A stretch of 64,000 nt of DNA from an uncultured Planctomycetales bacterium (GTDB lineage: Bacteria > 4484-113 > JAFGCY01), in the NCBI GenBank assembly GCA_964609245.1, contig CAZSSB010000001.1, forward strand, positions 79,836 to 143,835, read 5' to 3'. The notes beneath the pieces are model-generated. The model saw nothing but the letters and a program-made list of their open reading frames with translations. It was not told where the DNA came from and did not search any database. A program made the translations under genes and the position numbers. Shown piece by piece: positions 14,491 to 62,505 of the stretch (the stretch's first letter is position 1; each line of letters begins with the position of its first letter).

Positions 14491-16452
14491 TTATTGTTCC
14501 GTTCGAAAGATCTTTGAATGCTCAACGTTGTTGCTGTCGCGATAGGTTATCGCGAGAACCACACAGTGATAATTTCCTGACTTGAACGCTTTCATCTTCA
14601 GGCCGCACAAGTACACAGCCCCCGAAACACCCGTCACAGAAACAAACTCTGAGGTTCTCTTGTCAAGCATACCGCTGGCATCTAGCTGGCCGCGGTTTAT
14701 GATGACTGAGCCGGTGTTGAGCCACTGATGATACTCAGCGGAATAGTGGGTCTTCGTTCCATCGTCATTATCTACTGTAGACATCACTATCGCTTTGGTC
14801 TCATTCTCGGGTTCTTCATCGCAGGTATTACGAGAGACAGAAGCAGTCGCCTTGGCTGGATTGTATTCGACTGGGTCGCTCCACGTTGTGCCGCTGGCAT
14901 CATTGCCGTGAGTGTAATACGCGGCGTTATCTGCTTCCCCCGTGTAGTAGTCCAGGTGGTAAGCCAGGCCCGGCACTCCGCCTGCGTCTACCAGCGACAT
15001 CGTGAAATCGATCAGCGCAGTCTCGAAGGAGTCCAATTGAACAGGCGAGTTCCAGGCTGTTCCGGCTGCATCCTGGGCGCTGATGAATCCCAGTGCGGCA
15101 TCATCCGCGCCCACAACGGTATAAGCGATCGCCGGCCGGTCGTCGATTAGCGCTGCTGACAACACGTATCCCGTGTTCACGGATTCCGTTGGCGGCACGA
15201 CTTCATCCGGATCGTCCAGCCAGGTGGTGCCCAGCTCGTCCTCAGCGCGAATGTACATCACGCGCTTGTCAGCTCCGTCGTCTTGGTGAAAAGCGATCGC
15301 GGGGCGGCCGTCGGCTTCCAGCAGGGCCGGGCAGTGGCCCGTGCCCGCCCCATCATCGACCAGCACCGGCGAGCCCCAGCTATCACCGACGGTATCTTCT
15401 GCGCGGACATACCACAATTCCTGCAGACTGCCGGTGAAGCACTGATAGGCAATCGCGGGATTGCCGCCGATTACCGCCATCGAGGCGAAGCTGCCTGGGT
15501 TGTTAGTTGCCGACAGCTCCATCGGAGTTGTCCATTCGGTGGCTTCAGTGTTGGTCGCATGGGCGAACAGCAGGCGGCCATCGTCCCAGCTGTCGGCTTC
15601 ATGGATTACAGCAGCAGCGTATTCACCCAATAGCGCGATGTCATTAATGCCGCCGAACTCACCCGGGTTCTCGAAAGTAAACGCTGGTTCGAGTGCTGGC
15701 GCCAGGGCAACCTGGTCGCTGGCGATGCCCTCAGCGGTGCCGTCCGAGGGACGTACCCAGAATGAGTCTCCAGCTTGATACTCCTCCACCTCATAGCTGA
15801 AGCGCATGCGTACTCCGCTGGCTGTTTCGCCGTCGATGAACTGCACCGTGCCGAGGGGGGTGGCGTTGCCGTTGTCGTCAGTCGCGTCGGTGGGGTAGTC
15901 TTCGGCATCGGCGCTGACGTAGACGTTGTAGCTGGTGACGCTGCAGCCAAAGGCCTGGCCGATCGGCGTGATGTCACTGACGGTGATCATGCCGTCGAAG
16001 TTGCCGTCGGCCATGGAAGCCGCTTCCCAGTCGGGCGAGTCGGTGTCCTTGTCGAAGTGCACGCCGACCGGCGTGAGGTCGTTGACGGTGACGAAGCCGT
16101 CTTGGTTGTAGTCGCCGGTATTGTAGTAATCCCAGCTCAGCGTGCGGGTGTAGTAGTCCCAGCTCAGGGCCGACTGTGAGCGCGGATCCTGGGGCGGTGC
16201 AGCCGTGACTTTGCCTCTGCCGTGCAGGTCGATCAGGACGTCCTTGAGCTGTTGTTTCAGCTTGGCGAACAGCTCGCTGTCGGTGCCCGCGGGCGGCGCC
16301 AGTGCCTCCAGTTCGGCCACTGCCGCTTCGAGTGACGGCCCGCTGTGGCTGGCAGCGGGGGAGGCTTCGACCTCCGACAGCGAGGCGGCGCCATTGCAGG
16401 CCGGCAGAACCAGCCAGCACAGGATGAGGGCAAACAAGGCAGAACGTTGCAT
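14491..16452 (-). CDS. Surface lipoprotein paralogue A: dockerin-like module plus Asp-box-like beta-propeller repeats, with a divergent low-G+C C-terminus
   Basis: Likely start is the ATG at 16452 (MQRSALFALILCWLVLPAC, lipobox). Contains YYNTGDYNQDGFVTVNDLTPVG ... DGNFDGMITVSDITPIGQAF. Repeats of the form G.PAIAY...L.Y.RAeD..G..W. The last ~125 aa are AT-rich in codons and lack the repeat. Confidence 0.85.
   Translation of the reverse strand: MQRSALFALILCWLVLPACNGAASLSEVEASPAASHSGPSLEAAVAELEALAPPAGTDSELFAKLKQQLKDVLIDLHGRGKVTAAPPQDPRSQSALSWDYYTRTLSWDYYNTGDYNQDGFVTVNDLTPVGVHFDKDTDSPDWEAASMADGNFDGMITVSDITPIGQAFGCSVTSYNVYVSADAEDYPTDATDDNGNATPLGTVQFIDGETASGVRMRFSYEVEEYQAGDSFWVRPSDGTAEGIASDQVALAPALEPAFTFENPGEFGGINDIALLGEYAAAVIHEADSWDDGRLLFAHATNTEATEWTTPMELSATNNPGSFASMAVIGGNPAIAYQCFTGSLQELWYVRAEDTVGDSWGSPVLVDDGAGTGHCPALLEADGRPAIAFHQDDGADKRVMYIRAEDELGTTWLDDPDEVVPPTESVNTGYVLSAALIDDRPAIAYTVVGADDAALGFISAQDAAGTAWNSPVQLDSFETALIDFTMSLVDAGGVPGLAYHLDYYTGEADNAAYYTHGNDASGTTWSDPVEYNPAKATASVSRNTCDEEPENETKAIVMSTVDNDDGTKTHYSAEYHQWLNTGSVIINRGQLDASGMLDKRTSEFVSVTGVSGAVYLCGLKMKAFKSGNYHCVVLAITYRDSNNVEHSKIFRTEQ
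15950..16135 (-). other. Dockerin-like double EF-hand module (paralogue A); approximate bounds
   Basis: Two loops fit D-x-[NT]-x-D-G-x-[IV]-x-x-x-D: DYNQDGFVTVND and DGNFDGMITVSD. Each is followed by [IL]TP[IV]G. Confidence 0.6.
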
Positions 16453-16605: not shown

Positions 16606-18510
16606 CTAGCTGGCGCCGAAAGCAAGTGTTACCAGATTCAGGCTCCAGTTCCCACCGCCGCTATCCGACGGATAGGCGAAATACAGAGTGCCGCCGTCCG
16701 CGCTGCACTTGGGCTGCGCCAGCCGGCGCCAGCCGATGATGTCGCCGCCTTCCCGCATCTCGAAGGTGGTTTCCCAGTCCACGGCGTAGCCGCTGCCTGG
16801 ATCGCTGGCCAGCAGCAGGTGCAGCTGCATGAAATCCGTCCAGTTGCGATAGATCAGGAACAGCGGATCGCTGGCGGCGGGTCCGGTCACGACCGCTTGC
16901 GGCCAGAAGCCCTGGCGGCCCTCGAACTGCGATGTATCCGGCCAGCTTGCACCGTCGGCGTCATCGGCGACGTGGACGAACAGCGCGCCGTTGGGATCCG
17001 AGAACCACATCAGCGGGAGGCCGCCGTTCACCAGCAGGCTGGGGCTCTCGCCGACGTTGACGGATCCCAGATCGAAGATGGTCTGCTCAGCACTCCAGGC
17101 GGTGCCGGCGGCGTCGGTCGCGCGCACATAGCGGAACTCATTGATGTCGGAGGGGTAGTAGCCCACGGCGGGATTGCCGTTCACTTCGGCCAGCATCGGG
17201 TAGATCTGGATGTCCGTCTCCGGGCTGATGTACAGCGAATCACCCCAGGTAGTCCCTGTAGCATCGGTGGCCGTGATGTAGCGCAAGCCGAAGCGACTCT
17301 CGCCCTCACTGGCGCCTTGGGCGCCGAACGCCGCGGCGGGCATGCCGCCGATCAGGCCTTCGGCCAGGTGATCGGGGCTCGTGGTAATGGGGTCTGCCTC
17401 TACCGCGGCATTCCAGGCAGCGCCGCTGGACTCGCTGGCGCTGATGAAGTGCAGGCGGGTGACGAATTGCTCATCGGGCTTCTTGGTGAAGAAGATTGCC
17501 GGACTGCCGTCCGCCAGCACCAGCATGCGGGCTTCCGGGTTGCTCAGCTCATCGGCAACCAGCACGGAGGTTTCGGGCCAGTCGGTGCCAAGGGCGTCAT
17601 TGGCGCGGATGTAGTAGATCGACTCCGTTTCGCCTTCATCGTTGACGTACATGAAGGCGGGATTGCCATTGACCAGTTCCAGGTCGTAGGTTACCCAGAA
17701 GTCGGCGGAGATGCCATCCACCGCGCCCTGGGTCTCGCCGACCGGTGATCCGCCCTCGGCGCGGTTGCTGGCCGTTCCCTCGCTCTCGCCGTCGGTCGGC
17801 CGCACCCAGTAGGCATCACCGGCCTCGGCGCCGGTCACGGAAAAAGCAAACAGCTTGCGATCACTGGCCTCGCCCGTGGCATCGGCGAACGCGACACTGC
17901 CCAGCAGCTCCGCCTCGCCGTTGTCATCGGTCGCGCCATCGGGGTAATCGTCGGGCGAGCTGCTGGCATAGACGTTGTAGCCGGTCACGCTGCGGTCAAA
18001 GGCCTGGCCGATCGGCGTGATGTCGCTGACGGTGATGAAGCCGTCCTGGGTGCCGTCGATGCAGGACAGCGCCGAAGCTGGATCAAACGGTCCTTCCGCA
18101 TCGAAGTTCTGTCCCAGGGGGGTGATGTCGCTGACGGTGACGAATCCATCCTGGTTATAGTCGCCGGTGTTGTAGTAGTACCAGGTCAGGGTGGTTGTGT
18201 CCTGGTTCCACAGCAATGGCGCCTCCGAACGTCCGTCCAGGGGAGGCTCGGATGCCTGCTTGCCGTTGCTCATCCTCGCGGTGAGCACCCTGGCCAACTC
18301 GCGTTTGAGCCCGGCAAACAGCTGTTCATCGACGCCGGCGGGAGTCTCAAGGGATGCCAGTTCGTCGAGCGCGCTATCCAGGGAGCAACCGTCGGCTTCC
18401 GGCGGCGAATCGGTTGACTCGTCTCCGATGACGGCCCCTGGTGACGTGCCGCTGCACGCAGGCAGAAGTAGCAGGCAGCAGGCGAACAACAGACCAGTAA
18501 TGCGCGGCAT
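16606..18510 (-). CDS. Surface lipoprotein paralogue B: dockerin-like module plus Asp-box-like beta-propeller repeats
   Basis: Likely start is the ATG at 18510 (MPRITGLLFACCLLLLPAC). Contains YYNTGDYNQDGFVTVSDITPLGQNF ... DGTQDGFITVSDITPIGQAF, VTGYNVY, and repeats such as GNPAFMY, GSPAIFF, GNPAVGY with RAnDalGtdW / AtDatGttW / AtDaaGtaW. Confidence 0.85.
   Translation of the reverse strand: MPRITGLLFACCLLLLPACSGTSPGAVIGDESTDSPPEADGCSLDSALDELASLETPAGVDEQLFAGLKRELARVLTARMSNGKQASEPPLDGRSEAPLLWNQDTTTLTWYYYNTGDYNQDGFVTVSDITPLGQNFDAEGPFDPASALSCIDGTQDGFITVSDITPIGQAFDRSVTGYNVYASSSPDDYPDGATDDNGEAELLGSVAFADATGEASDRKLFAFSVTGAEAGDAYWVRPTDGESEGTASNRAEGGSPVGETQGAVDGISADFWVTYDLELVNGNPAFMYVNDEGETESIYYIRANDALGTDWPETSVLVADELSNPEARMLVLADGSPAIFFTKKPDEQFVTRLHFISASESSGAAWNAAVEADPITTSPDHLAEGLIGGMPAAAFGAQGASEGESRFGLRYITATDATGTTWGDSLYISPETDIQIYPMLAEVNGNPAVGYYPSDINEFRYVRATDAAGTAWSAEQTIFDLGSVNVGESPSLLVNGGLPLMWFSDPNGALFVHVADDADGASWPDTSQFEGRQGFWPQAVVTGPAASDPLFLIYRNWTDFMQLHLLLASDPGSGYAVDWETTFEMREGGDIIGWRRLAQPKCSADGGTLYFAYPSDSGGGNWSLNLVTLAFGAS
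17995..18185 (-). other. Dockerin-like double EF-hand module (paralogue B); approximate bounds
   Basis: Loops DYNQDGFVTVSD and DGTQDGFITVSD. The nucleotide string tggccgatcggcgtgatgtcgctgacggtgat is shared almost verbatim with the other four modules. Confidence 0.6.
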
Positions 18511-20953: not shown

Positions 20954-22819
20954 CTACTTGGTGCGCTCGTCGAGCTTGCGCATCAGTTTCTCGACCCAGT
21001 ACTTGTCGGGCAGTAGCTCGTCGGGATCCTCGAGGCAGATCATGGTCACTTCGATCGTGTCGCCCGGTGCAAGGCTGCTGGGATCGATGTCGCGCCTGAT
21101 CAGTCCTTCATCCGTCTTGACATGCTCCTCGTACCGCGTGAGTTCCGAGGTGACGATCACCAGCGGATCGGGCAGCTCCGTCTCGCCGTCCTCGATCAGC
21201 ACCGCGCCGCCAAGTGTCACCACGCCCGTGTGCTCAGCGAAGGCGAGCAGTTCCCCTTCGATTTCCAGTTCCCCGCATGAGACCAGATCGCCGGAGCTGA
21301 GAGCCGCGTCGTGTTCGAGCCGCACGTCGCTGATGCCGTCGCGGTCGCTGTCCAGCAGCTCGGCTTCGTCCCCAAAATCACCGTCGAGGTCGGTATCGGT
21401 GCTGACCAGCCCGGTGGCGTGGGCCAGCCGGTTGCGGGTCTTCAGCGCATACCCATCCTCGATCTCCGGCGTCGCCGGATTGTCACCCGGCATCAGCGAG
21501 TCCACGGTCAGCATCGTGAAGTAACCACCATCCGGGTTGGGGCTGAACTCGATCGCGATGTCCAGGTCCGTCGTGCCGAAGGCCGGCAGCCTGACCGGCA
21601 CCGAAGAAATCGTGTAGTGCTCCGCTGACGCCGTGCTGACGGCACGGGTGGATGAGACCGGCCGCGAATCACCGGTGATGAGATCGACGGTCGGCAGATA
21701 GAAGATATCGAGATAGAGCAGCTGCTCGCGTGGCGCGCCGAGAAATACGGTCGCACAGCCCATCGTCCGCGTCGCCAGCGGCAGGTGCGGCACTTCCCAG
21801 CGCTCGGAGCCGATAATCTCGACCGGCTCGATCAGCCGCGAACCGCCCTTGCTGGGCGCATACGGTCCGGGGTTGGTCCCGTTGAGGTCGAAGAGATCCA
21901 GCCCGCTGAGGTCGAGGTTTGCCCGCAGGCTGATGTCGCCGATGATGTCGCCGCTGCCCGAGCCCTCGACGCCGTCCTTGTCGACGGCGACTACCGCCCA
22001 GTCATCGGCCGGCGAACCGGGCAGGACGGCGCTGTAAAGCGGTGGCAGGCCCTCGCGCGGCTGACCGGCCGAGCGCGGCACCGTCGGTTCGCCTGGTGCC
22101 GTGTCCTGGAGTGGCACGCCATTGTGCTTGACCATGTAGCCGGCGATATAGGACCCGTAGTTCTGGCCGATCGGCGTGATATCGGAGACGGTGATCTCGC
22201 CATCGGCGTTGCCGTCGACCCAGTAGGTGCGCTGGGCGGCGGCGTCCGGTGCCGCGCGGTCGTACTCCAGGCCCAGCAGCTGCCCAATGGGCGTCAGATC
22301 CGAGATGCCGACCAGACCGTCGAAATCGTAGTCGCCGGTGTTGGTCTGCGTCCAACTCAGTTCGACTAGGCCGTCGCCCGCCGAGGTGACGGCCAGATCA
22401 CTGATCACGTTGTATGCCCCGACGGGCGGCACGCTCACCAGCCTGCCCACCGCGCTGACCGGCAGCTCGATCGTGACCGGCTGGCCGGCAAGCTCGCTCA
22501 GGCCGACCACGCCCACGTCGAACCCGCCGCCGGCTGGCGCGGCGAGGCCTATGTGCTCTGGAGAACTCAACAGCTGCACGCCGTCCAGCCGCCGTCCATC
22601 CGGCAGGTCCACGTGGGCGAAAACCCCGTCGGCCGTGACAGTGGCAAACGTCAGCTCCAGAGCGCTGCCGCGATCCACCAGGCTGAGCCCGGCGATGTCA
22701 GATCCCGCCAGCGGGCTGAGCGACGGGCTGCGCATCGGCAGTTCCCGATTCGGGCCGCTGCAGCCGGCGATCACCAGCAGCGCCGCCCCCAGCAGGATTG
22801 CGCGTCCGTAAGTACTCAT
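20954..22819 (-). CDS. Surface lipoprotein paralogue D: Ig-like N-domain, dockerin-like module, Asp-rich Ca-binding-like C-terminal region
   Basis: Start is at 22837 or, more likely, the second Met at 22819 (MSTYGRAILLGAALLVIAGC, lipobox), which avoids overlap with the upstream gene stop. Contains LSWTQTNTGDYDFDGLVGISDLTPIGQLL ... DGNADGEITVSDITPIGQNY, and TDTDLDGDFGDEAELLDSDRDGISD. Confidence 0.8.
   Translation of the reverse strand: MSTYGRAILLGAALLVIAGCSGPNRELPMRSPSLSPLAGSDIAGLSLVDRGSALELTFATVTADGVFAHVDLPDGRRLDGVQLLSSPEHIGLAAPAGGGFDVGVVGLSELAGQPVTIELPVSAVGRLVSVPPVGAYNVISDLAVTSAGDGLVELSWTQTNTGDYDFDGLVGISDLTPIGQLLGLEYDRAAPDAAAQRTYWVDGNADGEITVSDITPIGQNYGSYIAGYMVKHNGVPLQDTAPGEPTVPRSAGQPREGLPPLYSAVLPGSPADDWAVVAVDKDGVEGSGSGDIIGDISLRANLDLSGLDLFDLNGTNPGPYAPSKGGSRLIEPVEIIGSERWEVPHLPLATRTMGCATVFLGAPREQLLYLDIFYLPTVDLITGDSRPVSSTRAVSTASAEHYTISSVPVRLPAFGTTDLDIAIEFSPNPDGGYFTMLTVDSLMPGDNPATPEIEDGYALKTRNRLAHATGLVSTDTDLDGDFGDEAELLDSDRDGISDVRLEHDAALSSGDLVSCGELEIEGELLAFAEHTGVVTLGGAVLIEDGETELPDPLVIVTSELTRYEEHVKTDEGLIRRDIDPSSLAPGDTIEVTMICLEDPDELLPDKYWVEKLMRKLDERTK
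22160..22345 (-). other. Dockerin-like double EF-hand module (paralogue D); approximate bounds
   Basis: Loops DYDFDGLVGISD and DGNADGEITVSD, each followed by [IL]TPIGQ. Confidence 0.55.
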
Positions 22820-22820
22820 C

Positions 22821-26135: not shown

Positions 26136-28550
26136 CTAGTAGTAGATCGCGAAGTGGATTCCTTCCTGTGAAGCTGCGTTGGTGCTGAAGGCGATCCCGG
26201 GCCGGCCGCCGATGTCCGCCAGCGATGCGTCGGTCTGACCGCAGGCGTGCTCCGAGACCAGTTCGGTGGCGGGCGGCCAGGCGTCGCCGGTTGAATCGAG
26301 GGCCTGCTTGTAGTACAGGTTCTTCAGCCCCAGGCCGTTGTCCGCTCCACCGGCATAGGCCGCCGCGGGCCGCCCGTCGACAACCGCGATGGTGTCGCCG
26401 GTCATCAGGAACTGCAGCGAGTCGATGTGGACGCGGTGCTCGCTGTCCCAACTGGAGCCAGTGGCGTTATCCGCCCGGATGTAGTACAGCGGCCTGACGC
26501 TTTCCGGCAGGAAGTCCTTGTACAGGATCGCCGGCCGGCCGGCAACCTCGATCAGTGAGGGGAACCAGGCGAGCACGATCGTGGTGTCGACGGTGACGCT
26601 GTTCCAGCTGGTACCGGCGGCGTCGCTGGCCCAGCAGTAGGAGATGCACCAGCCGTTGTCCTCGTCCTCGTAGCAGATGCCCGGCGCGCCGTTGATATCC
26701 GCGAGGTCCATCACGCCGAACACCTCGCTGCTGACCAGCGTGGGGTCCGCCCAGCTGATGCCGTCCGGGGCGCTGGCCCGGCGGTAGACGTAGCCGTCCG
26801 GCGGGCCGCTCATAGTCCCGTAGGTCACCGTCGGGTTGCCGTCGATCACCGCCCCGCCGTATGTGGTGAGCATGACACTGATGTCAGCCGCGTGGATCAG
26901 GAATCCCCAGACGTCGCCGTCAGGATCGACGGCGCGGGTGAACGTCAGCCCGCTCGCGGTGTGATAGATCACCGCCGGGTTGTCGTCCGTTTCGACAAAT
27001 ACCAGCCAGTCTTCGAAGTCACTGCAGACCACCTTCGGCGTGTCGGTCCAGCTCTCGCCCAGCGCATCATCGGCGCGGATGAACTGCACTTCGTCGTCGG
27101 CGTGGTTGTAGAACACCACGCCCGGGCGGCCGTTGACGTTCCTGAGGTGGGGGTAATACACCTCTGTGCTGGCGGCTACCGTGTAGACGTGCCATTCCGC
27201 GACAGGCCCACTGAGCAGGATCGTGCACTCGTCGACAGCGGTGGCACCGTCGTTGTCGGTGACGCGGAGCTTCACCGTGAAATTGCCCCCGTGGGTATAG
27301 GTGAAGCTGGCCACCGGCAGGCCCCGCGCCAGCGTTTCCTCGGGCGTGGGACCGTTGTACACGCCGTCGCCGTCAAGGTCCCACTCGTAGTCCACGATGG
27401 TGCCGTCGGGATCTTGGCTCCCCGTGGCGTCGAAATCCGCCATCAATGGTGCATCGCCGGTGGTGGGAACACCCACGAGGTCCGCCACGGGTGGCAGGTT
27501 GCCTTCCTCCGTCACGGTAACAGTCACGTATTCGGTATCCGTCGCGCCGAGGTTGTCCGTGACGCGCACCACGGTGTCGAAGCTGCCCGCGTTCTCGAAG
27601 GTGTGCTGCGCCGTCGGCGTGGCGCCGGTGTCCACCCATTGCCAGCCGTCGCCAGCGCCCGTCCAGTCCCACTCGTATTTGACGACCAGCCCGTCGGGAT
27701 CGTGGCTGAGGCTGGCGTCGAAATCCACCGCCAGCGGCACGTCCCCCTCCTGCGGATCGGCGCTGATGCTGGCCACCGGCGGGATGTTGGCGGCGGCGGG
27801 CAGCTGCACGCGCGAGCTGGGGGTGCCCTCCGCGCTGCCGTCCGTGGGCCGCACCCAGCAGTACAGCTCCGGCTGAGGCTCCGCCAGCATGAAGGTAAAG
27901 CGCTTGCGGTCGGTGACGGTTCCGCCGGCGGCGCTGAACTCCACACTGCCCAGCAGCGTCGCGCCGCCGTTGCCGTCGCTTGCGGCGGCCGGGTAGTCGC
28001 TGGCACTGCTACTACCGTAGACGTTGTAGCCGCTGACCTGGCGACCGAAGCACTGGCCGATCGGCGTGATGTCGCCAATCGTGATGAAGTCGTTCTGGTC
28101 GCCGTCGACGCACGAGACGGCCGTGGCCATGTCGAAGGGTCCCTCGGCATCGAAGTTCTGGCCCAGCGGCGTGATGTCGCTGACGGTGACGAGGCCGTCC
28201 TGGTTGTAGTCGCCAGTGCTGTAGTAGTACCAGCGCAGCGCGGTGCTGCCCTCGTCCCAGCTCAGCGGGGCGCGCGAGCGGTCGTCCCGGGGCGGCTCGG
28301 TGGCGACTTTGCCGCTGCTGAATCGCTCGCTGAGCACGCGGGCCAGTTCTACCTTGAGCTCGTCAAAGAGAGCCGCATCGGTCCCCGGCGGCGATTCGAC
28401 CGCGTCCAGTTCCGCCAGCACGTCATCCAGCTGTTGAATCGTCGCGATCGGTGACGGTGAGTCGCCACCGGCCGGCAGCAGCCTGTGGCCGGAGCACGCG
28501 GGAATCAGTAGCAAAAGGCAGAACGAGGCAGCAAGCGGAATGCGCTTCAT
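26136..28550 (-). CDS. Surface lipoprotein paralogue C: dockerin-like module, two PKD domains, Asp-box-like beta-propeller repeats
   Basis: MKRIPLAASFCLLLLIPAC (lipobox). Contains YYSTGDYNQDGLVTVSDITPLGQNF ... DGDQNDFITIGDITPIGQCF, and PKD signatures VKYEWDWTGAGDGW and VDYEWDLDGDGVY. Repeats include GRPGVVFY, DNPAVIYH, GNPTVTYG, GAPGICYE, GRPAILYK, GRPAAAYA and GRPGIAFS, with A.D..G.SW motifs. Confidence 0.88.
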   Translation of the reverse strand: MKRIPLAASFCLLLLIPACSGHRLLPAGGDSPSPIATIQQLDDVLAELDAVESPPGTDAALFDELKVELARVLSERFSSGKVATEPPRDDRSRAPLSWDEGSTALRWYYYSTGDYNQDGLVTVSDITPLGQNFDAEGPFDMATAVSCVDGDQNDFITIGDITPIGQCFGRQVSGYNVYGSSSASDYPAAASDGNGGATLLGSVEFSAAGGTVTDRKRFTFMLAEPQPELYCWVRPTDGSAEGTPSSRVQLPAAANIPPVASISADPQEGDVPLAVDFDASLSHDPDGLVVKYEWDWTGAGDGWQWVDTGATPTAQHTFENAGSFDTVVRVTDNLGATDTEYVTVTVTEEGNLPPVADLVGVPTTGDAPLMADFDATGSQDPDGTIVDYEWDLDGDGVYNGPTPEETLARGLPVASFTYTHGGNFTVKLRVTDNDGATAVDECTILLSGPVAEWHVYTVAASTEVYYPHLRNVNGRPGVVFYNHADDEVQFIRADDALGESWTDTPKVVCSDFEDWLVFVETDDNPAVIYHTASGLTFTRAVDPDGDVWGFLIHAADISVMLTTYGGAVIDGNPTVTYGTMSGPPDGYVYRRASAPDGISWADPTLVSSEVFGVMDLADINGAPGICYEDEDNGWCISYCWASDAAGTSWNSVTVDTTIVLAWFPSLIEVAGRPAILYKDFLPESVRPLYYIRADNATGSSWDSEHRVHIDSLQFLMTGDTIAVVDGRPAAAYAGGADNGLGLKNLYYKQALDSTGDAWPPATELVSEHACGQTDASLADIGGRPGIAFSTNAASQEGIHFAIYY
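27225..27790 (-). other. Tandem PKD domains in paralogue C; approximate bounds
   Basis: PLAVDFDASLSHDPDGLVVKYEWDW...VVRVTDNLGATDTEYV and PLMADFDATGSQDPDGTIVDYEWDLDGDG...VKLRVTDNDGATAVDE. Confidence 0.8.
28045..28230 (-). other. Dockerin-like double EF-hand module (paralogue C); approximate bounds
   Basis: Loops DYNQDGLVTVSD and DGDQNDFITIGD (the second is slightly degenerate), each followed by ITP[LI]GQ. Confidence 0.55.
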
Positions 28551-28743: not shown

Positions 28744-31444
<2,701 letters not shown>

Positions 31445-33980: not shown

Positions 33981-34043
33981 CGGCCACGCCGGTCCATGTG
34001 CTACCGTGCTGGCTCACAATCAAGCCACCGGAGTATCCGCCTG

Positions 34044-35604: not shown

Positions 35605-37176
35605 CTACTCCGCGATGTTGACGATCTGCGGGTCGCCCAGTTCGGGGATGCCGACGGGCACGCCGTAGGTCGCGCCCCACAGATACAGGTAGACCGAGGA
35701 CTGCGGGAAGCGGAAGCACTCCTCGTTGATGCCGTCGTCGATGCAGCGGAACTTGACGTAGCCGACGAAGCCCTCGCCGTCCTTGGGCTCGTCCAGGTCC
35801 TTGCGCTGGGTGGCGTTGAAGCCCACCTCGCGATAGCCGTCGGCGATGTCGCCGACGTCGGCGCCGACGAACAGCGGCGGCTCCAGCAGGTTGGGATGCT
35901 CGGTGGACAGCTCATCGGTGTAGAACGCGACGCTGTCCACGTACTCCACCAGCGTGGAATCGTACTCGAAGCGCACGTTGGCGCTGAACAGCCCCTCGAC
36001 ATTGGCGACCCTGACCCCGATGTAGAACTCGTTGCCAACGTTGAGCAGCTCACTCTTGGGCGCCTGAATCTCGAAGCTGAGCGCCACGCCCGGCGGCACC
36101 ACCATGGTGGTCGCCACGTTGCTGACCGGCCCCTCCAGCGGCGTCTCGCCGGGCTTGCCGACCGGCACCACGTACCAGCCGAAGCTGCCGGGTTCCTCGG
36201 GGGTGTCGAGGAAGGTGTACTGCAGCCGCGTCTTCTGGCCGTTGTAGTCGCGCGGCGCCGACGGCCCCGTGGGCTCGGCGTTGTTGAGCACCTTCTCCCA
36301 GCGGCCGCTATCCGCGGGGTCGGGCTCTTCCTCGGGCTCAGCAAGCGGGGTGCGGTAGACGTTGTACCCCGTGATGAAGCTGAGGAAGCTCTGGCCGATC
36401 GGCGTGATGTCGGCGACGGTGATCAGGCCGTCCTCGTCGCCGTCGACCACCTCGATCAGCGCCCAGTCATCTTCGCCTTCGACGGCGGGCTGATCGAAAT
36501 AGAGCCCCAGCGGGGTGAGATCGTTGACGCCTACCTCACCGTCGAGGTTGTAGTCGCCGTTGTGGCGCTCAAACCAGCTCAGCGTCGCCGAGCTCTCGCC
36601 GTCGTAGATCGCCTGCAGATCCTTGACCTTGGAGCGCGGGACCTGGCTGATCTCCGCCGGTATCTTGGCCACGGGCTCGGCGCCCGCAGTGAAACTGACC
36701 ACCGCCAGCGGCTCGGCCGGATCGAGCAGTGCCCCGCCGGTGCCGGTAACGGCGATCGCCACCAGCCCCCGGCGCACGATCGCCAGGCCCAGTCCGTCGC
36801 CGCGCTTTACCTCGGCGGACGTGACGTGCTCGCGCTCGGGGTCGAACCGCACGTACAGACTGGCGCTGGGCAGCGCCGCGTCGCTGTAGATCGCCAGCGT
36901 ATCGCCGGCGGCCTCGAGGCGCAGCGCCGCCAGCGTCTCGGCGTCAGGCAGGTTGGCTGCGCCGAGCGCGCTGACGCGATAGCCGCCGCTGCTGACAAAC
37001 GGCGCGGTCGCTAGCGCTTCCATCAGTGGCCTGACTTCGATGCTGGGCGCCAGCGGGTTCCAGGCGGCCGCCTTGCCCGCCGTCGGGTCCAGCTCCGGCT
37101 GCTCGAGGCTCAGGGCTCCGCCGCAGCCCGTCAGACACAGTACCAGCACGATCAGTGGGATAATTGCACGCATCAT
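35605..37176 (-). CDS. Surface lipoprotein paralogue E: Ig-like N-domain, dockerin-like module, cohesin-like C-terminal domain
   Basis: Start at the MM pair 37176/37173 (MMRAIIPLIVLVLCLTGC, lipobox). Contains LSWFERHNGDYNLDGEVGVNDLTPLG ... DGDEDGLITVADITPIGQSF and TGYNVY. C-terminal FYIGVRVANVEGLFSANVRFEYDSTLVEYV ... GFVGYVKFRCI. Confidence 0.85.
   Translation of the reverse strand: MMRAIIPLIVLVLCLTGCGGALSLEQPELDPTAGKAAAWNPLAPSIEVRPLMEALATAPFVSSGGYRVSALGAANLPDAETLAALRLEAAGDTLAIYSDAALPSASLYVRFDPEREHVTSAEVKRGDGLGLAIVRRGLVAIAVTGTGGALLDPAEPLAVVSFTAGAEPVAKIPAEISQVPRSKVKDLQAIYDGESSATLSWFERHNGDYNLDGEVGVNDLTPLGLYFDQPAVEGEDDWALIEVVDGDEDGLITVADITPIGQSFLSFITGYNVYRTPLAEPEEEPDPADSGRWEKVLNNAEPTGPSAPRDYNGQKTRLQYTFLDTPEEPGSFGWYVVPVGKPGETPLEGPVSNVATTMVVPPGVALSFEIQAPKSELLNVGNEFYIGVRVANVEGLFSANVRFEYDSTLVEYVDSVAFYTDELSTEHPNLLEPPLFVGADVGDIADGYREVGFNATQRKDLDEPKDGEGFVGYVKFRCIDDGINEECFRFPQSSVYLYLWGATYGVPVGIPELGDPQIVNIAE
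35608..36090 (-). other. Cohesin-like domain of paralogue E; approximate bounds
   Basis: The pattern F.I.V.v.nV.gL.sa.v.f.YD...Le.v, plus a later G.vgyv.F strand, matches my memory of the cohesin beta-sandwich consensus. No HMM search was run. Confidence 0.45.
36390..36565 (-). other. Dockerin-like double EF-hand module (paralogue E); approximate bounds
   Basis: Loops DYNLDGEVGVND and DGDEDGLITVAD, each followed by [LI]TP[LI]G. Confidence 0.55.
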
Positions 37177-37310
37177 GTTCCTTCCGGCAAGTACAGCCTT
37201 TGTTACCATCGCTCGGTCGACAAATGGCGTAGCTGCCCCTCTGGTTCTGGTGAGACTAACCGCACATTATAACAACCGGTGGCCTGTGCCGGGGGTCCGG
37301 AAGCACCGCC

Positions 37311-58689: not shown

Positions 58690-60498
58690 ATGCGCGTAAG
58701 CTTCAGCGTGCAGTGGATTTGCGCTGCCGGACTGCTGATGGCGGCGTGCCTTTGTGCCGCCGCCGCTATGGCCGCCGAGACGGTGGCGATCGAGGTGGAG
58801 CCGGCGGTTGAAGCCGTTGCCGCCCCGGATCCGGCGCCGACGGAGGCGGAGCCTGCCGAGGACGCCGCCCCCAGCGAAGCCACCGAGATCTCGCTACTGG
58901 AACTCATCTCCTGGCGCCAGGTTGGCCCGCCGCCGCTCGCGGTGCAGCCGCCGAGCGAGGAGCACACGACGGCCGCCTTGCTGCCCGCAGCCGATGACCA
59001 CGTCGTCGGCGCCAGCCTCGAGGGCGAGACGGAGGAGTCCGTGCTCGAGCAGCTGTTCGACAACCAGACCTACGAGGGTCTGCGGCGCCGGCAGTCGGGC
59101 CGGACTGATCCCGCCCCGGCGCTGCCCGCGCGCCGGCCGGCGGCCCGTGCGCCCCGGGCGGGCTGGCGGATCGACGGCAGCGTCACGTTGGCGCCGGGCT
59201 ATGCGACCTACGCCGACGCGGACTACGTCGGCTTCGCGCTGCGCGAATCGCTGGACCTGCTCAGCGGCGACCGCTACGAGTTCTACCAGATCTACGAGAC
59301 CGAGCACAGCTTCGTCAACGCCGGTCTGCTGACGCTGGGCGCCCGTCAGCGGCTCCGGGACGTGGCCTGGCGCGGCGACCTGCGGCTGAAGGAGGAGTTC
59401 CGGCTCTACCGCGACCGCGACGAGGGCGTCTACGACCGTCAGGAGGGGCTGTTCGAGCTGCGCTTCGATCCCGAGTGGCTGTGCGGCTGTCTCGAAGCGG
59501 ACATCGGATACAAATACCGCATTCGGGTCTACGAGACGTTCTCGACGCGCAGCTACATCTACCAGGGCGGGCGGGCGGAGCTCAAGTATCAGCTGTCGCC
59601 GCGCGTGGCGACGCGGGTGCTGGGGCGCCTCGATGACTACAACTACAGCCAGGGCAGCACCCTGAGCAGCAACCGCCACGCCGTGGGCAACGAGTGGCAG
59701 TGGGAAGTCGTGGACGGCCTGCAGCTGAGCGCCGGCGCGGCGCGGGAGCGCAAGAACTATAACCTGAGCAAGACGCGCACCTATGAGAAGCAGGGCTACG
59801 AGGTCGGCGCGGACTGGCGGATCGACGCGGACAGCAGCCTGCGAGTCAAGGGCAAGCTGGTCGACTACGACCGCGAACTGCGGCCGGAGAGCAGCTACGA
59901 GGACGCCTCGCTGGAGGTGCGCTATCGCCGCAACCTCAGCGACCGGCTCGACGCCGAGCTGCGCCTGCGGGAGCGGCAGAAGGACTACGACCTGGGGACG
60001 GCAAGCGACCTCGACCAGCACAGCGTGGATCTGCGGATGAACTACAACCCGACCTGGGACTGGAACATCTACGCCGGGCTGGGGCGGACTCAGTACGATT
60101 ACGTGAACGCGGCGCGGGCCTTCGAGCGCCGGGACGCCGGCGTCGGCGTCAGCTACTACATGAATCGTTTCAGCGCCAGCGCGGACTACTTCCGTCGGGA
60201 GTACGTGTTCGACGCCGACGCGGACCGCGACTATGCGCGGGACGACCTCAACTGCTATCTGGACTACCGTTTCGGTCCGCAGCGCTGGCGGGTATATTAC
60301 GGGATCGGCATGCTTGGTCAGACCGATCCGGCGTCGGTAAATGAGTACAGCGAGACCCGGCTGGGTGCGGCCTGGGATTATGAACTCGACCCCTGTGTCG
60401 ACCTCAGGCTGAGCTATGAGTACCACGTTCGCGACTACGACGCCTATGACGATATCGAGTATGGCCAGCTCGAGGCCAGGCTCGAATTCGAGCTGTAG
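58690..60498 (+). CDS. Predicted outer-membrane beta-barrel protein
   Basis: ATG at 58690 inside track ORF 58384... Signal peptide MRVSFSVQWICAAGLLMAACLCAAAAMAAE and an acidic/Pro-rich linker. Long runs of alternating aromatic/polar strands rich in Y, R and D follow (RLGAAWDYELDPCVDLRLSYEYHVRDY), ending in LEARLEFEL. Confidence 0.6.
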   Translation: MRVSFSVQWICAAGLLMAACLCAAAAMAAETVAIEVEPAVEAVAAPDPAPTEAEPAEDAAPSEATEISLLELISWRQVGPPPLAVQPPSEEHTTAALLPAADDHVVGASLEGETEESVLEQLFDNQTYEGLRRRQSGRTDPAPALPARRPAARAPRAGWRIDGSVTLAPGYATYADADYVGFALRESLDLLSGDRYEFYQIYETEHSFVNAGLLTLGARQRLRDVAWRGDLRLKEEFRLYRDRDEGVYDRQEGLFELRFDPEWLCGCLEADIGYKYRIRVYETFSTRSYIYQGGRAELKYQLSPRVATRVLGRLDDYNYSQGSTLSSNRHAVGNEWQWEVVDGLQLSAGAARERKNYNLSKTRTYEKQGYEVGADWRIDADSSLRVKGKLVDYDRELRPESSYEDASLEVRYRRNLSDRLDAELRLRERQKDYDLGTASDLDQHSVDLRMNYNPTWDWNIYAGLGRTQYDYVNAARAFERRDAGVGVSYYMNRFSASADYFRREYVFDADADRDYARDDLNCYLDYRFGPQRWRVYYGIGMLGQTDPASVNEYSETRLGAAWDYELDPCVDLRLSYEYHVRDYDAYDDIEYGQLEARLEFEL

Positions 60499-60531: not shown

Positions 60532-62505
60532 ATGGTGAAGACAGGCAAGCGGTGTACTGCTGTTGCATCCCTGACGGTGTTGGCGGCGCTGTTGCTGCTG
60601 ATTCCCGCCGCGGCCCAGGATGAGGACGCCTCGATCCTGCTGGCGCGGCTGCTGGGTACCGTCGAGGTCGCCCACGCCGACCTGACCGCCGCCGAGTGGA
60701 TCGCCGCCGGCGTTGGGATGGAGATCGGCAGCGGCTGGCGGCTGCGTACCGGTGAGGCGTCCAAGGCGCAGTTGGTCTTTCCGCGCGACAACGTGGTGAT
60801 TCTCAAGGAGAATTCCGTCCTCTACGTCGACAAACTGGACGCGGGAGGCGGGGCCGGCTTGCAGGCCAGCGCCGGCAGCCTGTTGGTTGACCTGGCCAAT
60901 GCGCTGGCGCCCGGCTCGGACTTCGAGCTGGAGACCCCGACGGCGCTGGCGGTGGTCCGCGGCACCAAATACGGTGCGGCTGACATTAGTGAGTACAACG
61001 TGACCTTCTACGGTTACAGCGGGCTCGTCGACATCTTCGACAGCGCGGGGCAGTTCCCGCCGGTGCAGCTGGGAGCGGGCTTTGCCGTTGACGTGGCGGC
61101 GGGCGAGGCGCCCGGCGAGCCCTACCTGCCCGGACCCGAGGCGCAGCAGTTCGTGGCGGATGCCGAGGACAGCGAGGGTTTCGAGGCGGTCGAGGAGCAG
61201 GCCGGGCTGCTGGCGGCGGAGCTCATGGCGATCCTGGGGCGGCTGGAGGAACTGGACGCTGTCCTGGCGGACTACGAGGATGAGTGGGCTCGCTACGAGC
61301 GCCGCGACCAGACCAGCCACCTGCTGTTCCTTTACGCCCAGGTGCTGAGCCTGCGCGACGAGGTGGATGCCGCCGCTGATGACTACGCGGCGGCGGTCGC
61401 GGATCAGGAGGAGCTGGCGGGCGAGCTGGGCGAGCAGATCGAAGCGTTGCTGGCCGATCTTTACGCGCGCCTCGACGACCTGGCCAGCGAGGCCGAGCCG
61501 CTGATCGGTGATGAGGAGGAGCTGCTGGAGATGCTGCGCGGCGCAATCCCGCCGGGCGCGCCGGCGCTGGGGCTGCGCTGGAATCTGATCGATACCGACA
61601 ACGACGGGGTTTCAGACCTTGACGAGCTGGCGCTGGGCACCGACCCGATGGTCAGCAACGACGACGGGTTCTTCGACCTGATCGCGCCCGACGACGGCGA
61701 GGAGTTCGACTACCCGGAGACCGACCTGGTCACCTTCGAGTTCGAGCCGCTCGACAGCGAGATCGTGCTCAGCTACGACCTGCGGCTCGAGGCCGACGGC
61801 GTGCAGTGGCAGCGCCGCGACGTGGACGCGGCCGAGGACGTTGATCTCAGCGTGCTGGTGGGGCCGGGCGGGGTCTTCGCCGACCTGCTGGCCGCCGCCG
61901 AGACGCTGGACATCGATTGGGTGGTGCTGGCCAATCTCGATGCCGACCGGCTGGTGGGCCGGGTGGCGGCTCAGGCACCAGCGGGTCCGCCCGCCGGGCC
62001 GGCCAGCGTGCCCAGCCAGCAGTGGACGGTGACCCTGAACGTGCCGCCGCCGGACCAGTTCGTCGTCATCGACCTGGTGCCCGCCGGGCCGGTGACGGTA
62101 GCCCCGGAAGACCGCGTGCGGGTGCGGGCGGAGATCGACGAGGTCACCGACCTCGGCGAGTGGGAGCTAACAATCGTCTACGACCCGTCGGTGCTGGAGT
62201 TCGATATCGGCCGCCGGCTGGGCCTGTTCGCGGGCGCCACGCTGTTCTTCGGCGACCAGCTGGGCGGCGTGCTGACCGTCAGCGGCAGCGTGCCGCGCGG
62301 CGCGCCGGCCGTCACCGGCACCGGTGAGCTGTTCGAACTGGAGTTCCTGGCGCTGGAGGAGGGCACCAGCACCGTCGAGATCACCGACGTGGCGCTGACC
62401 GACATCCTGGACCGCGAGATCGTGGCCGAGGGAGGCGAGACGGTGGACATCGACGTGCTTGCCAACGCCTTCGGCTCGACGACGGGCAGCTACTTCAAGG
62501 ACTAG
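60532..62505 (+). CDS. Secreted FecR-domain protein with a coiled-coil region, a TSP3-like Ca-binding motif and a cohesin-like C-terminal domain
   Basis: Signal peptide ...LAALLLLIPAAAQ. FecR-like GSGWRLRTGEASKAQLVFPRDNVVILKENSVLYV...FELETPTALAVVRGTKY, DTDNDGVSDLDELALGTDP, and C-terminal RVRAEIDEVTDLGEWELTIVYDPSVLEF...ELFELEFLALEEGTSTVEI. Confidence 0.8.
   Translation: MVKTGKRCTAVASLTVLAALLLLIPAAAQDEDASILLARLLGTVEVAHADLTAAEWIAAGVGMEIGSGWRLRTGEASKAQLVFPRDNVVILKENSVLYVDKLDAGGGAGLQASAGSLLVDLANALAPGSDFELETPTALAVVRGTKYGAADISEYNVTFYGYSGLVDIFDSAGQFPPVQLGAGFAVDVAAGEAPGEPYLPGPEAQQFVADAEDSEGFEAVEEQAGLLAAELMAILGRLEELDAVLADYEDEWARYERRDQTSHLLFLYAQVLSLRDEVDAAADDYAAAVADQEELAGELGEQIEALLADLYARLDDLASEAEPLIGDEEELLEMLRGAIPPGAPALGLRWNLIDTDNDGVSDLDELALGTDPMVSNDDGFFDLIAPDDGEEFDYPETDLVTFEFEPLDSEIVLSYDLRLEADGVQWQRRDVDAAEDVDLSVLVGPGGVFADLLAAAETLDIDWVVLANLDADRLVGRVAAQAPAGPPAGPASVPSQQWTVTLNVPPPDQFVVIDLVPAGPVTVAPEDRVRVRAEIDEVTDLGEWELTIVYDPSVLEFDIGRRLGLFAGATLFFGDQLGGVLTVSGSVPRGAPAVTGTGELFELEFLALEEGTSTVEITDVALTDILDREIVAEGGETVDIDVLANAFGSTTGSYFKD
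62041..62470 (+). other. Cohesin-like domain at the C-terminus of the FecR-domain protein; approximate bounds
   Basis: FVVIDLVPAGPVTVAPEDRVRVRAEIDEVTDLGEWELTIVYDPSVLEFD ... GTGELFELEFLALEEGTSTVEITDVAL follows the cohesin strand pattern as I remember it. No HMM search was run. Confidence 0.5.

Follow-up and report, generated by a model that had tools for sequence, protein, structure and literature searches.

Protein E and its gene

The window (the whole stretch of DNA that was analysed, 64,000 nucleotides) carries on its minus strand, at 35605..37173, the gene for a 522-aa lipoprotein referred to here as E. The longest E open reading frame, 35605..37209 on the same strand, would specify 534 aa. 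However, since homologues have 522-524 aa, M13 (37173) is taken to be the true start. The signal peptide and lipobox (MRAIIPLIVLVLCLTG/C) are encoded by 37123..37173 (minus strand). The lipobox is LTGC, and its cysteine, Cys17, is invariant in 37 orthologues.

From its N-terminus E consists of a cohesin-type domain, a dockerin nested within an Fn3-like domain, and a C-terminal cohesin. Its AF2 model (pLDDT 89.2, pTM 0.86) is compact and made up of four domains, without flexible linkers; what linkers there are are very short, and pLDDT stays above 77 at every domain junction. Such a model suits a self-contained rigid protein no less well than an open adaptor. NCBIfam holds no family for E, for the dockerin lipoproteins or for the small cohesin protein type considered below.

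Cohesin domains

HMM matches and predicted folds identify as cohesins both the C-terminal domain of E (35608..36090, minus strand) and the C-terminal domain of a secreted FecR protein encoded elsewhere in the window. For E this agrees with the preliminary description, in which its last ~160 aa were considered cohesin-like: both Pfam matches of its family and the predicted fold point the same way. The curated cut-off of Pfam Cohesin (PF00963) is 24.1 bits. E's own sequence reaches 19.8 bits (E 9.8e-4), below the cut-off and with only profile positions 4-49 aligned, but 33/37 E orthologues are matched at E<=0.01, the best at 1e-9, and the highest score among them is 42.2 bits. The cut-off is thus passed by the FecR protein and by the E family, not by E's own sequence. 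Foldseek comparison of the predicted E structure with the PDB gave mostly cohesins (probability 1.00, TM (target) 0.55-0.74), with a cohesin dyad as top match. Type II cohesins are the nearest by sequence, and the PDB matches of a profile of the C-terminal domain were all to this type; phmmer of E against PDB sequences yielded no more than a weak alignment with a dockerin (4fl4_A, E 0.46). An HMM built from the E cohesin family recovers E alone when the genome is scanned, so the cohesins of this genome are mutually divergent.

A further cohesin-type domain is probably present in the N-terminal part of E, namely a beta-sandwich encoded by 36679..37005 (minus strand), for which hhalign and Foldseek suggest a divergent cohesin. 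In hhalign comparisons the N-terminal domain of E aligns with the N-terminal domains of 17 paralogues (P 1.4e-12), and the family of these paralogue domains in turn aligns with the FecR cohesin (P 5.5e-5). One family member (the C28 protein) scores 24.2 bits with Pfam Cohesin, barely above the cut-off, and two further members match at E 1e-3 to 8e-3. Pfam gave zero matches for ten single N-terminal domains, the cohesin nature of which is read from profile comparisons only; against the PDB the profile of these domains is weak, its cohesin matches (E~0.05) being interspersed with Ig light chains.

A dockerin within a predicted Fn3-like domain

The dockerin-like module of E was placed at about 36390-36565 when the protein was first described as a lipoprotein. 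It is found at 36385..36561 (minus strand), and the lipobox is present. Each of its two 12-residue Ca loops (DYNLDGEVGVND and DGDEDGLITVAD) is followed by a helix, three helices are predicted in the AF2 model, and all Ca ligands are retained in both repeats. Pfam Dockerin_1 (PF00404), for which the curated cut-off is 22.9 bits, does not match E at E<1 and matches 7/37 of its orthologues. Search with this HMM had been proposed as a check on the modules. Genome-wide, its cut-off is exceeded by 14 modules, and E<0.1 is reached by 41, with scores of 17.0 and 15.1 bits for two modules of the window. The modules match one another at E 1e-25 to 1e-33 (87/87 mutually homologous) and this, together with the 14 above the Dockerin_1 cut-off, excludes chance. 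The ligands of the first repeat are D1 in 85/85 modules, N/D3 in 82/85, D/N5 in 84/85 and D12 in 84/85; those of the second repeat are equivalent. Best matches of the dockerin profile in the PDB are dockerins and X-dockerins, though weak. Judged from their sequences, these are dockerins that have kept their Ca ligands. Their two repeats are 45% identical and have homogeneous predicted recognition positions, features shared with dual-binding type I dockerins. The helix residues are nearly uniform across 85 modules.

In the model of E the dockerin sits inside the B-C loop of an Fn3-like domain, a feature that is new here. Strands A-B of this host domain (ATLSW) are encoded by 36562..36624 and strands C-G (GYNVYR ... 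FGWYVVPV) by 36100..36384, both on the minus strand; the former were assigned from DSSP of the model and hhalign across the splice, the latter from the model and hhalign. Strands flank the dockerin helices on both sides, in a pattern consistent with Fn3. When the dockerin was excised, the alignment of host domains matched, with 91% probability by hhalign (P 9e-7), an Fn3 profile derived independently from this genome, a comparison spanning only 28 columns, those of strands B-C across the splice. Pfam fn3 gave no match at E<1 with five dockerin-excised single host sequences.

The FecR-cohesin protein and the CHASE2 operon

The secreted FecR protein (60532..62505, plus strand) comprises a FecR domain (60739-60978, plus strand; Pfam FecR 32.7 bits), a coiled coil, a TSP3 Ca motif (61591-61650, plus strand; Pfam TSP3_bac), an Ig-like domain and a C-terminal cohesin. 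The latter, noticed earlier as a cohesin-like domain at 62041-62470, extends over 62023..62466 (plus strand) and is kept in 10 homologues. Its Pfam Cohesin match (aa 520-620) scores 26.8 bits, or 29.3 in the genome scan, above the 24.1 cut-off, and cohesins are all of the best 50 PDB matches of the FecR model with Foldseek (top 2xdh, TM 0.81, rmsd 2.9). HMM and structural similarity to cohesins, on which the original proposal hinged, is found for both C-terminal domains. In the FecR model the pLDDT of the C-terminal domain is 76-92, and the pTM of the whole is 0.36. A phmmer search of PDB sequences with the FecR protein found nothing. With NCBIfam, the FecR domain matches only FecR-type lipoproteins of Leptospira.

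The first gene of the operon (58690..60498, plus strand) encodes a predicted outer-membrane beta-barrel with weak Porin_4 / MtrB_PioB matches. In L010 the gene that lies upstream of the FecR-cohesin orthologue encodes a protein 46% identical to it. On the other side of the FecR-cohesin gene is that for a CHASE2 sensor with a class III nucleotidyl cyclase (62533..64000, plus strand), which is cut by the end of the window. The full protein has 664 aa (Pfam CHASE2 88 bits, Guanylate_cyc 85 bits), and a gene for an HDOD protein comes next downstream. That one of the cohesins belongs to a CHASE2-cyclase module had been deduced from the window, and the comparison bears this out: the cyclase domain is confirmed, and the gene for the FecR-cohesin protein shows linkage to that for the CHASE2 and class III cyclase protein, lying directly upstream of it in 19 of the 22 phylum genomes with both genes. 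In the closest relative the FecR-cohesin gene does not adjoin CHASE2.

Dockerin proteins of the genome

Five dockerin-like modules had been counted in the window and five are found. In addition to that of E, they are those of the lipoprotein encoded by 14491-16503 (module at 15952..16116; Dockerin_1 17.0 bits, family HMM 111 bits), the lipoprotein of 16606-18648 (18001..18168; Dockerin_1 15.1 bits and family HMM), the lipoprotein of 20954-22837 (22157..22339; family HMM), which also has an N-terminal beta domain, and the PKD lipoprotein of 26136-28550 (28050..28217; Pfam and family HMM), all on the minus strand. Pfam detects no GH or CBM in these five open reading frames.

The genome as a whole has 87 nested dockerin modules in 81 open reading frames, the products of which are mostly lipoproteins, at least 48 with a clear lipobox. 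The module is N-proximal, near the lipidated N-terminus, and the passengers C-terminal to it are variable. Pfam families among the passengers of 78 dockerin open reading frames are PKD (21), fn3 (7), PQQ-like propellers (4), S8 (3), CotH (2), TIG (2) and CAP (1), and there are many unannotated domains. On passenger content of this kind (PKD, Fn3, propellers, S8, CotH, TIG) the reading as a cellulosome is rejected. Dockerins of classic type, C-terminal and not nested, also occur in this genome, on S8 subtilases. About 19 dockerin lipoproteins have an N-terminal cohesin-type domain directly beside the dockerin. There are also small lipoproteins that are cohesin-only and have no other recognisable function. 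A Pfam cohesin scan of the genome gave 8 matches in 8 different open reading frames.

Distribution across the phylum

Copy numbers, domain identities, synteny and phyletic co-occurrence are shown by the data, and the system is genome-wide and phylum-wide rather than a local cluster. All 24 of the phylum species genomes have the dockerin module, 23 of them, with genome sizes of 1.5-4 Mb, in 20-88 copies each. Pfam cohesins are present in 23/24, the only exception being a genome with just 2 modules. E is a single-copy core gene, found in one copy in 23/24 of the genomes, and its synteny is conserved (TPR-recO-E-DUF2007). One genome (G023) has kept an E-like gene while having nearly no other dockerin proteins, from which it follows that the function of E is independent of a large client set. 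When 1.84 billion library proteins were searched with the composite module as a whole, 2,083 protein clusters matched. A literature search on the UBP7 lineage and on candidate-phylum dockerin lipoproteins found no description of the system.

A proposed function and its rivals

Our main reading, to which we give a probability of about 50%, is that a non-cellulosomal cohesin-dockerin system is a hallmark of this uncultured bacterial phylum and serves to organise lipoproteins through Ca-dependent contacts. A common handle, the two-repeat Ca-binding dockerin in the B-C loop of the Fn3-like domain, is shared by ~80 proteins per genome, mostly lipoproteins, and the bearers of cohesin-type domains are few, namely E, the FecR-TSP3-cohesin protein, the small cohesin-only lipoproteins and the ~19 dockerin lipoproteins. 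Ca-dependent pairing of the two would tether the lipoproteins and organise them on the envelope. E could act as an adaptor or hub, comparable to a type II cohesin binding an X-module-dockerin dyad. A dockerin lipoprotein would potentially be brought to the CHASE2 sensor by the cohesin of the FecR protein, and we propose that the status of the envelope or of a ligand would in this way feed into cyclic-nucleotide signalling. Here binding, the choice of partners and the cellular compartment are what we infer. That dockerin-bearing propeller lipoproteins are cross-linked or recruited by cohesins, as the preliminary description had it, is suggested by the co-occurrence of both module types.

A wider version of the main reading is tentative and on the doubtful side. 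The Fn3-nested dockerin would be a universal tag, present on 20-88 lipoproteins per genome (2-3% of genes), that is read by E and by the FecR cohesin, in a code by which the whole phylum organises its envelope. The essential-like single-copy E would display or array the tagged lipoproteins, and the FecR cohesin would report on surface lipoproteins, as to their occupancy or ligand state, directly into cyclic-nucleotide signalling via the CHASE2 cyclase. Such a code, if true, would be the first case of a cohesin-dockerin pair in signal transduction and lipoprotein display and not in enzyme scaffolding.

Several observations temper these proposals. E's own sequence is under the Pfam cut-off for Cohesin and unmatched by Dockerin_1. 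Tethering by cohesin and dockerin is not obviously needed, because the presumed partners are usually both lipid-anchored. The dockerin helices are strongly conserved, which might be due to their packing on the Fn3 host and not to a cohesin interface.

It is unlikely that the dockerin-like module is instead only a Ca-stabilised insert, there to stiffen an Fn3 stalk next to the membrane anchor, and does not bind cohesins; the ligands of the cohesin folds may then be glycans or other proteins, as for many such beta-sandwiches. The modules are always in the same host domain and at the same N-proximal position, the near-uniform helix residues of the 85 modules would suit an internal packing surface, both presumed partner classes are already membrane-anchored and, to our knowledge, most non-cellulosomal dockerins have no known partner. 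However, cohesins and modules co-occur across the phylum and are jointly lost or reduced in G023, the internal symmetry of the two dockerin repeats is retained, and the small lipoproteins that have a cohesin have nothing else of recognisable function. The dockerins on S8 proteases, being non-nested and C-terminal, have no Fn3 host to stiffen. Decidedly less probable is that the cohesin binds the dockerin of its own chain, in E and the ~19 lipoproteins, to give a rigid self-capped stalk and no network, with any trans contacts limited to those between cohesin-less clients and free cohesins. The four-domain E model, with its pTM of 0.86, pLDDT above 77 over the junctions and very short linkers, is what would be expected of such a stalk, and the FecR protein, at pTM 0.36, contrasts with it; in the ~19 paralogues a cohesin-type module lies right beside the dockerin, and E persists in G023 nearly without client proteins. 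Against this, a tree of 81 dockerins does not separate those of proteins with a cohesin from those of proteins without one, so there is no sign of specialised cis partners, though the tree is poorly resolved. The tree has 18 label changes, compared with a mean of 20.3 on shuffling, and 56/500 shuffles were as low. Dockerins beside a cis cohesin do not form a clade of their own in this poorly resolved tree.

A true cellulosome-like polysaccharide-degrading complex, with its enzymes encoded outside the window, is most improbable. Cohesins and many dockerins are present, and single dockerin proteins do have weak matches to GHL15, Glucodextran_B and Sde0182_C. However, at E<=1e-4 Pfam finds a canonical GH, CE, PL or CBM in 0/78 dockerin open reading frames, in keeping with the original view that this is not a cellulosome. 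Moreover, the genome scan brought up no scaffoldin combining tandem cohesins with a CBM (0 of its 8 cohesin matches were accompanied by a CBM), and the dockerins are N-proximal on lipoproteins and not C-terminal on secreted enzymes.

Significance

Cohesin-dockerin pairs are textbook high-affinity protein connectors, yet nearly all understanding of them comes from the cellulosomes of Firmicutes. We know of no partners for thousands of non-cellulosomal cohesin and dockerin modules and, likewise, of no ligands for the CHASE2 sensor class. The lineage offers a compact, self-consistent test case, with one stereotyped dockerin handle on ~80 lipoproteins and a few candidate receptors with cohesins, among them the product of a universal single-copy gene (E) and one wired to a CHASE2 cyclase. 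As the modules are small and suited to recombinant expression, their partners can be mapped by direct tests despite the hosts being uncultured. If the binding is true, cohesin-dockerin biology would be extended to lipoprotein display and signalling in diderm-looking bacteria, and an Fn3-nested dockerin scaffold would be added to the toolbox of synthetic biology.

Relation to known systems

Non-cellulosomal cohesin-dockerin systems were already known; the nesting in Fn3 (as modelled), the phylum scale, E as a core gene and the adjacency to CHASE2 are what is new here. The type II cohesin/X-module-dockerin pairs of clostridia, such as SdbA-CipA of C. thermocellum (2B59/5K39) and ScaB-ScaA of A. 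cellulolyticus (4U3S), have several likenesses to the modules described here. The C-terminal cohesin of E has its profile matches, and some of its best Foldseek matches, among type II cohesins, the dockerin is coupled to an Ig-like beta-sandwich, comparable to the X module, and there are two F-hand Ca loops with the canonical D1/N3/D5/D12 ligands. However, the dockerin is here predicted to lie inside an Fn3-like domain, and not after an X module, and in the lipoproteins it is near the N-terminus. SLH anchors, a tandem-cohesin scaffoldin and carbohydrate-active enzymes are lacking here, the helix motif is T-P-[IL]-G instead of L-L-K-R, and the host looks diderm, having an outer-membrane barrel gene.

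Cohesin and dockerin modules in non-cellulosomal organisms, sometimes both in one polypeptide, were reportedly described by Peer et al. in FEMS Microbiol Lett in 2009, a paper cited in PMC6461901 and PMC10066038. Non-cellulosomal cohesins of known structure include that of A. fulgidus (2XDH), the best match of the FecR cohesin at TM 0.81, and those of C. perfringens (2JH2, 2VO8). Different here is that dockerin and Fn3 form one fixed composite, that it occurs in 20-88 copies per genome throughout the phylum, and that one cohesin protein is universal and single-copy.

A non-cellulosomal cohesin-dockerin complex, the 'planctosome', has been proposed, from genomes alone, for Nemodlikiaceae Planctomycetes, its parts being an adaptor with dockerin and cohesin, an anchor with TSP3 repeats and cohesin, and dockerin-bearing peptidases (Andrei et al. 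2019, PMC6461901). The S8 subtilases with classic C-terminal dockerins are the counterparts here of these peptidases. However, the lineage is another one, lipoproteins bearing PKD or propeller passengers make up most of the clients, the dockerin lies within what is modelled as an Fn3 domain, dockerin proteins are far more numerous, and one cohesin protein belongs to a FecR/CHASE2 cyclase operon.

In the 'BiofilmReg' operon of Burkholderia, a secreted FecR-domain protein is encoded beside a membrane CHASE2 sensor (PMC5192318), the same FecR/CHASE2 adjacency that is kept here in 19/22 genomes. The output there is a histidine kinase, whereas here it is a class III cyclase. In place of the LysM of the Burkholderia FecR protein, that described here has the coiled coil, TSP3, Ig-like domain and C-terminal cohesin, and an outer-membrane barrel gene precedes its gene.

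In public records the metagenome-assembled genomes of the phylum are variously labelled 'bacterium', UBP7/UBP7_A or 'Planctomycetales bacterium'. On relatives, 'UBP7', which NCBI taxonomy does not list, is a record name only: UBP7 sensu stricto has genomes of 0.8-1.4 Mb with 36-53% GC, and the genome here is 3.3 Mb with 67% GC.

Cohesin domains of a lipoprotein and a FecR protein

At its longest, the open reading frame of lipoprotein E is 534 aa (35605..37209, minus strand). Its database homologues (n=52) are 522-524 aa long, indicating M13 (37173) as the true start, from which a signal peptide runs to a lipobox, LTG|C. The C-terminal 161 residues (35608-36090, minus strand) had been suspected of being a cohesin from their strand pattern, and at the family level the case for this is clear. 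The single sequence reaches 19.8 bits against Pfam Cohesin (E 9.8e-4, under cut-off, profile positions 4-49 only). Of 37 orthologues, 33 match Pfam Cohesin, the best at 1e-9, and one orthologue scores 42.2 bits; a profile of the domain compared with all PDB sequences recovers type II cohesins only (best 5g5d/5k39, E 4.9e-4). The AF2 model of E (pLDDT 89.2, pTM 0.86) gives a PDB Foldseek list that is mostly cohesins (probability 1.00, target TM 0.55-0.74), headed by a type II cohesin dyad at E 6.6e-9.

The secreted FecR protein (60532-62505, plus strand) begins with a cleavable signal peptide and contains a FecR domain at aa 70-149, a TSP3 Ca motif at 354-373 and a Pfam Cohesin match at aa 520-620. 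The cohesin proposed for its end is confirmed: it scores 26.8 bits against a curated cut-off of 24.1 and is kept in 10 of 10 homologues found. AF2 models this C-terminal domain at pLDDT 76-92, and the best 50 Foldseek matches in PDB are all cohesins, led by 2xdh, a non-cellulosomal cohesin of Archaeoglobus fulgidus (TM 0.81, rmsd 2.9 Å, 139 columns).

A dockerin predicted to be nested in an Fn3-like domain

The dockerin-like module of E, located to about 36390-36565 in the preliminary description, lies at 36385-36561 (minus strand) and comprises a pair of 12-residue loops, DYNLDGEVGVND and DGDEDGLITVAD, with a short helix after each. The count of five such modules in the window stands; clearly homologous ones occur in the lipoproteins at 14491-16503, 16606-18648, 20954-22837 and 26136-28550, and the adjoining PKD/propeller protein (18720-20867) is without one. 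Against Pfam Dockerin_1, E gives no match and two of its paralogues in the window give 15-17 bits; seven E orthologues match, as do 41 places genome-wide at E<0.1, and 14 places exceed the cut-off. The domains described beforehand are confirmed, and the hallmarks of both module types are intact. In repeat 1, each calcium ligand (loop positions 1, 3, 5 and 12) is retained by 82-85 of 85 modules, and repeat 2 is equivalent. Predicted recognition positions 10, 11, 17 and 18 are nearly uniform among modules (V-S ... G-Q/V) and the two repeats average 45% identity, a pattern pointing to a small number of specificities and perhaps to dual binding.

The dockerin helices of the E model (aa 216-224, 237-243 and 253-261 in 522-aa numbering) sit between strands ATLSWFE and ITGYNVYR, and further strands follow. 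As modelled, the two correspond to Fn3 strand B, with its Trp, and strand C, with its Tyr motif. The dockerin columns were removed from the alignment of genome modules, and the remainder was compared by hhalign with a separate Fn3 profile, itself derived from canonical Fn3 domains of this genome that all lie outside the modules. The two align across the splice (probability 91%, P 9e-7, 28 columns only); no spliced single host sequence reaches Pfam fn3. Predicted structure thus gives good support, and profile comparison partial support, to an Fn3-like host whose B-C loop contains the dockerin.

Scale and passengers in the genome

The host genome is a 3.28-Mb MAG of 114 contigs, 88% complete. 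Starting from the five window modules, iterated HMM searches of all its ORFs find 87 modules in 81 ORFs, many dockerins against few cohesins. The module nearly always lies 70-230 residues past the N-terminus, and a crude pattern picks out a clear lipobox in at least 48 of the ORFs. Five ORFs have two Fn3-dockerin modules each (among them contig positions C8:73383-75590, C8:81092-83389, C43:7214-9235 and C40:10728-13047). A second dockerin type, classic, C-terminal and non-nested, is present beside the nested one in three proteins, two S8 subtilases (one tandem) and a TIG lipoprotein (C4:101549-103393, C21:21452-24427 and C36:1470-3230; loci L016, L032 and L042).

Passenger sequence is largely unannotated. 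Pfam domains in 78 module ORFs comprise PKD (21), fn3 (7), PQQ-like propellers (4), S8 (3), CotH, TIG and BNR_4 (2 each) and CAP (1). No canonical glycoside hydrolase or CBM was found among these 78, so the earlier view that this is not a cellulosome, formed on the window, extends to the whole genome.

Pfam cohesin-type matches fall in eight places: E, the FecR protein, three small near-cohesin-only lipoproteins (C9_24479 at 26.2 bits, C13_65233 and C21_405) and three dockerin lipoproteins, where the match is N-terminal to the Fn3-dockerin. Module lipoproteins have two classes of spacer between lipidated Cys and module. The longer (135-230 aa, about 19 ORFs) forms a beta domain whose strands follow a cohesin-like order, and one protein of this class attains the Pfam Cohesin cut-off at 24.2 bits. 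The profile of this family matches the FecR cohesin (P 5.5e-5), the C-terminal cohesin of E (P 4.5e-4) and, at P 1.4e-12, the N-terminal domain of E. Single N-terminal beta-domain sequences find nothing in Pfam, and the family profile matches PDB weakly. A second, N-terminal cohesin-type domain in E is on these profile matches only probable, and is consistent with a cohesin dyad being the top match of the E model.

Distribution across the phylum

The MAGs in which homologues of E occur bear the labels 'bacterium', UBP7 or 'Planctomycetales bacterium', and one isolate name has UBP7_A. An exhaustive search of 1.84 billion representative proteins with the module profile gave 2,083 clusters (1,564 at E<=1e-10). 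Among the 150 clusters listed, most are matched over nearly all 163 profile positions, typically at residues ~80-340. The composite module is present in all 24 genomes that a species-level collection contains for the phylum, with 20-88 copies in 23 of them, even in genomes of 1.5-2.3 Mb. Pfam Cohesin exceeds cut-off in 23 of the 24, and the two module types strictly co-occur. The cohesin type of E is single-copy in 21 and in two copies in 2 more, missing only from a 62%-complete genome; a protein with both cohesin and dockerin is in this sense universal. The genome without Pfam Cohesin, G023, is the sole member of a separate family in the class. It has 2 modules, no FecR-cohesin protein, no CHASE2 and an E-like match at E 5e-11. 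Either the system has been nearly lost there in nature, or G023 shows the ancestral state.

The E neighbourhood is kept across the lineage: an 1,800-aa TPR protein, a small ORF, recO, E and a DUF2007 gene. Here these are, as in family- and order-level relatives, the TPR-like gene (38656-44058, minus), a 168-aa ORF (38153-38659, minus) and recO (37311-38123, plus). A membrane polyferredoxin (33864-35252) has a DUF2007 ('putative signal transducing') gene on either side, at 35292-35561 and 33366-33980 (minus); the gene of the free 89-aa DUF2007 protein is directly downstream of E and syntenic with it in four comparison loci (L005-L008). Its phylum-wide presence, copy number and neighbourhood thus make E a single-copy core gene, and the composite module is a lineage hallmark.

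The CHASE2 operon

The FecR-cohesin gene is followed by one whose product joins CHASE2 to a class III nucleotidyl cyclase; read from the full contig, this product has 664 aa. Just beyond the window end and 3′ of the cyclase is an HDOD protein (L052:2140-3063) which may be in the same signalling operon, and 5′ of the FecR-cohesin gene is a predicted outer-membrane barrel gene conserved together with it. That the FecR-cohesin gene goes with a CHASE2-cyclase gene, as proposed, is borne out across the phylum: of 22 genomes having both genes, 19 have them directly adjacent, no more than about 350 bp apart. In the other three the genes are ~5 kb apart, separated by a contig break, or unlinked (G013, of the same genus, where the CHASE2 genes are on other contigs). 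The cohesin end is kept in all three families of the class and is fixed to this sensory operon.

Variants occur. In a Zodletone relative (L010, JAFGCY010000004.1, genes after 8073) three unannotated genes (178, 207 and 401 aa) replace CHASE2. In G011 (C21:65796-75929) the FecR ... cohesin region is within a giant 3,502-aa ORF directly adjoining a CHASE2 gene; in G012 of the same genus (C5:127682-138372) it is in ORFs of 2,519 and 1,230 aa, with CHASE2 ~5 kb off.

Proposed mechanism and alternatives

Calcium-dependent cohesin-dockerin contacts may organise lipoproteins on the envelope, with E as adaptor or hub, and the cohesin of the FecR protein would bring a dockerin lipoprotein to the CHASE2 sensor. 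This reading has a probability of about one half. A clearly weaker candidate is that the module is a Ca-stabilised structural insert lacking a cohesin partner. The uniform dockerin helices, and the fact that both presumed partners are already anchored, fit such an insert, but it does not sit well with the co-occurrence of cohesins and modules, the free cohesin-only lipoproteins or the non-nested dockerins on S8 proteases.

Docking might instead be in cis, inside E and inside cohesin-bearing lipoproteins. E is compact, with no flexible linkers (pTM 0.86, against 0.36 for the beads-on-a-string FecR protein), and it is retained in G023 where there are almost no clients; however, dockerins adjoining a cis cohesin form no separate clade in a poorly resolved tree of 81 dockerins, and cis docking is considered unlikely. 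A genuine cellulosome, rejected on passenger content, is highly improbable.

Comparison with known systems

Cohesin and dockerin modules are reportedly widespread outside cellulosomes (Peer et al. 2009, as cited by later authors). The closest mechanistic analogue is the type II cohesin / X-module-dockerin pair; the E cohesin is type II-like by sequence and the dockerin is, like that of an X-module-dockerin, structurally coupled to an Ig-like sandwich. Of the same kind as the present system is the 'planctosome', a complex proposed on the strength of Planctomycetes genomes (PMC6461901), in which an adaptor would carry dockerin and cohesin, an anchor TSP3 and cohesin, and peptidases a dockerin. 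Unlike in it and other non-cellulosomal modules, the dockerin here is nested in an Fn3-like domain, placed on lipoproteins and expanded phylum-wide to 2-3% of genes, and there is a single-copy core cohesin-dockerin protein together with a conserved FecR-cohesin/CHASE2-cyclase operon. FecR-domain partners beside CHASE2 sensors are known elsewhere, as in a Burkholderia operon (PMC5192318), compared with which the cohesin is the lineage-specific element. A literature search on the lineage and on dockerin lipoproteins found no description of this system.

The window also has ordinary genes: flagellar hook FlgE of 802 aa with a large D2 insert (45096-47504, minus), FliK (48660-50717, minus), catalase-peroxidase KatG (29252-31444, plus) and, wedged in the lipoprotein array, a GntR/aminotransferase (MocR-type) regulator (22821-24353, minus).
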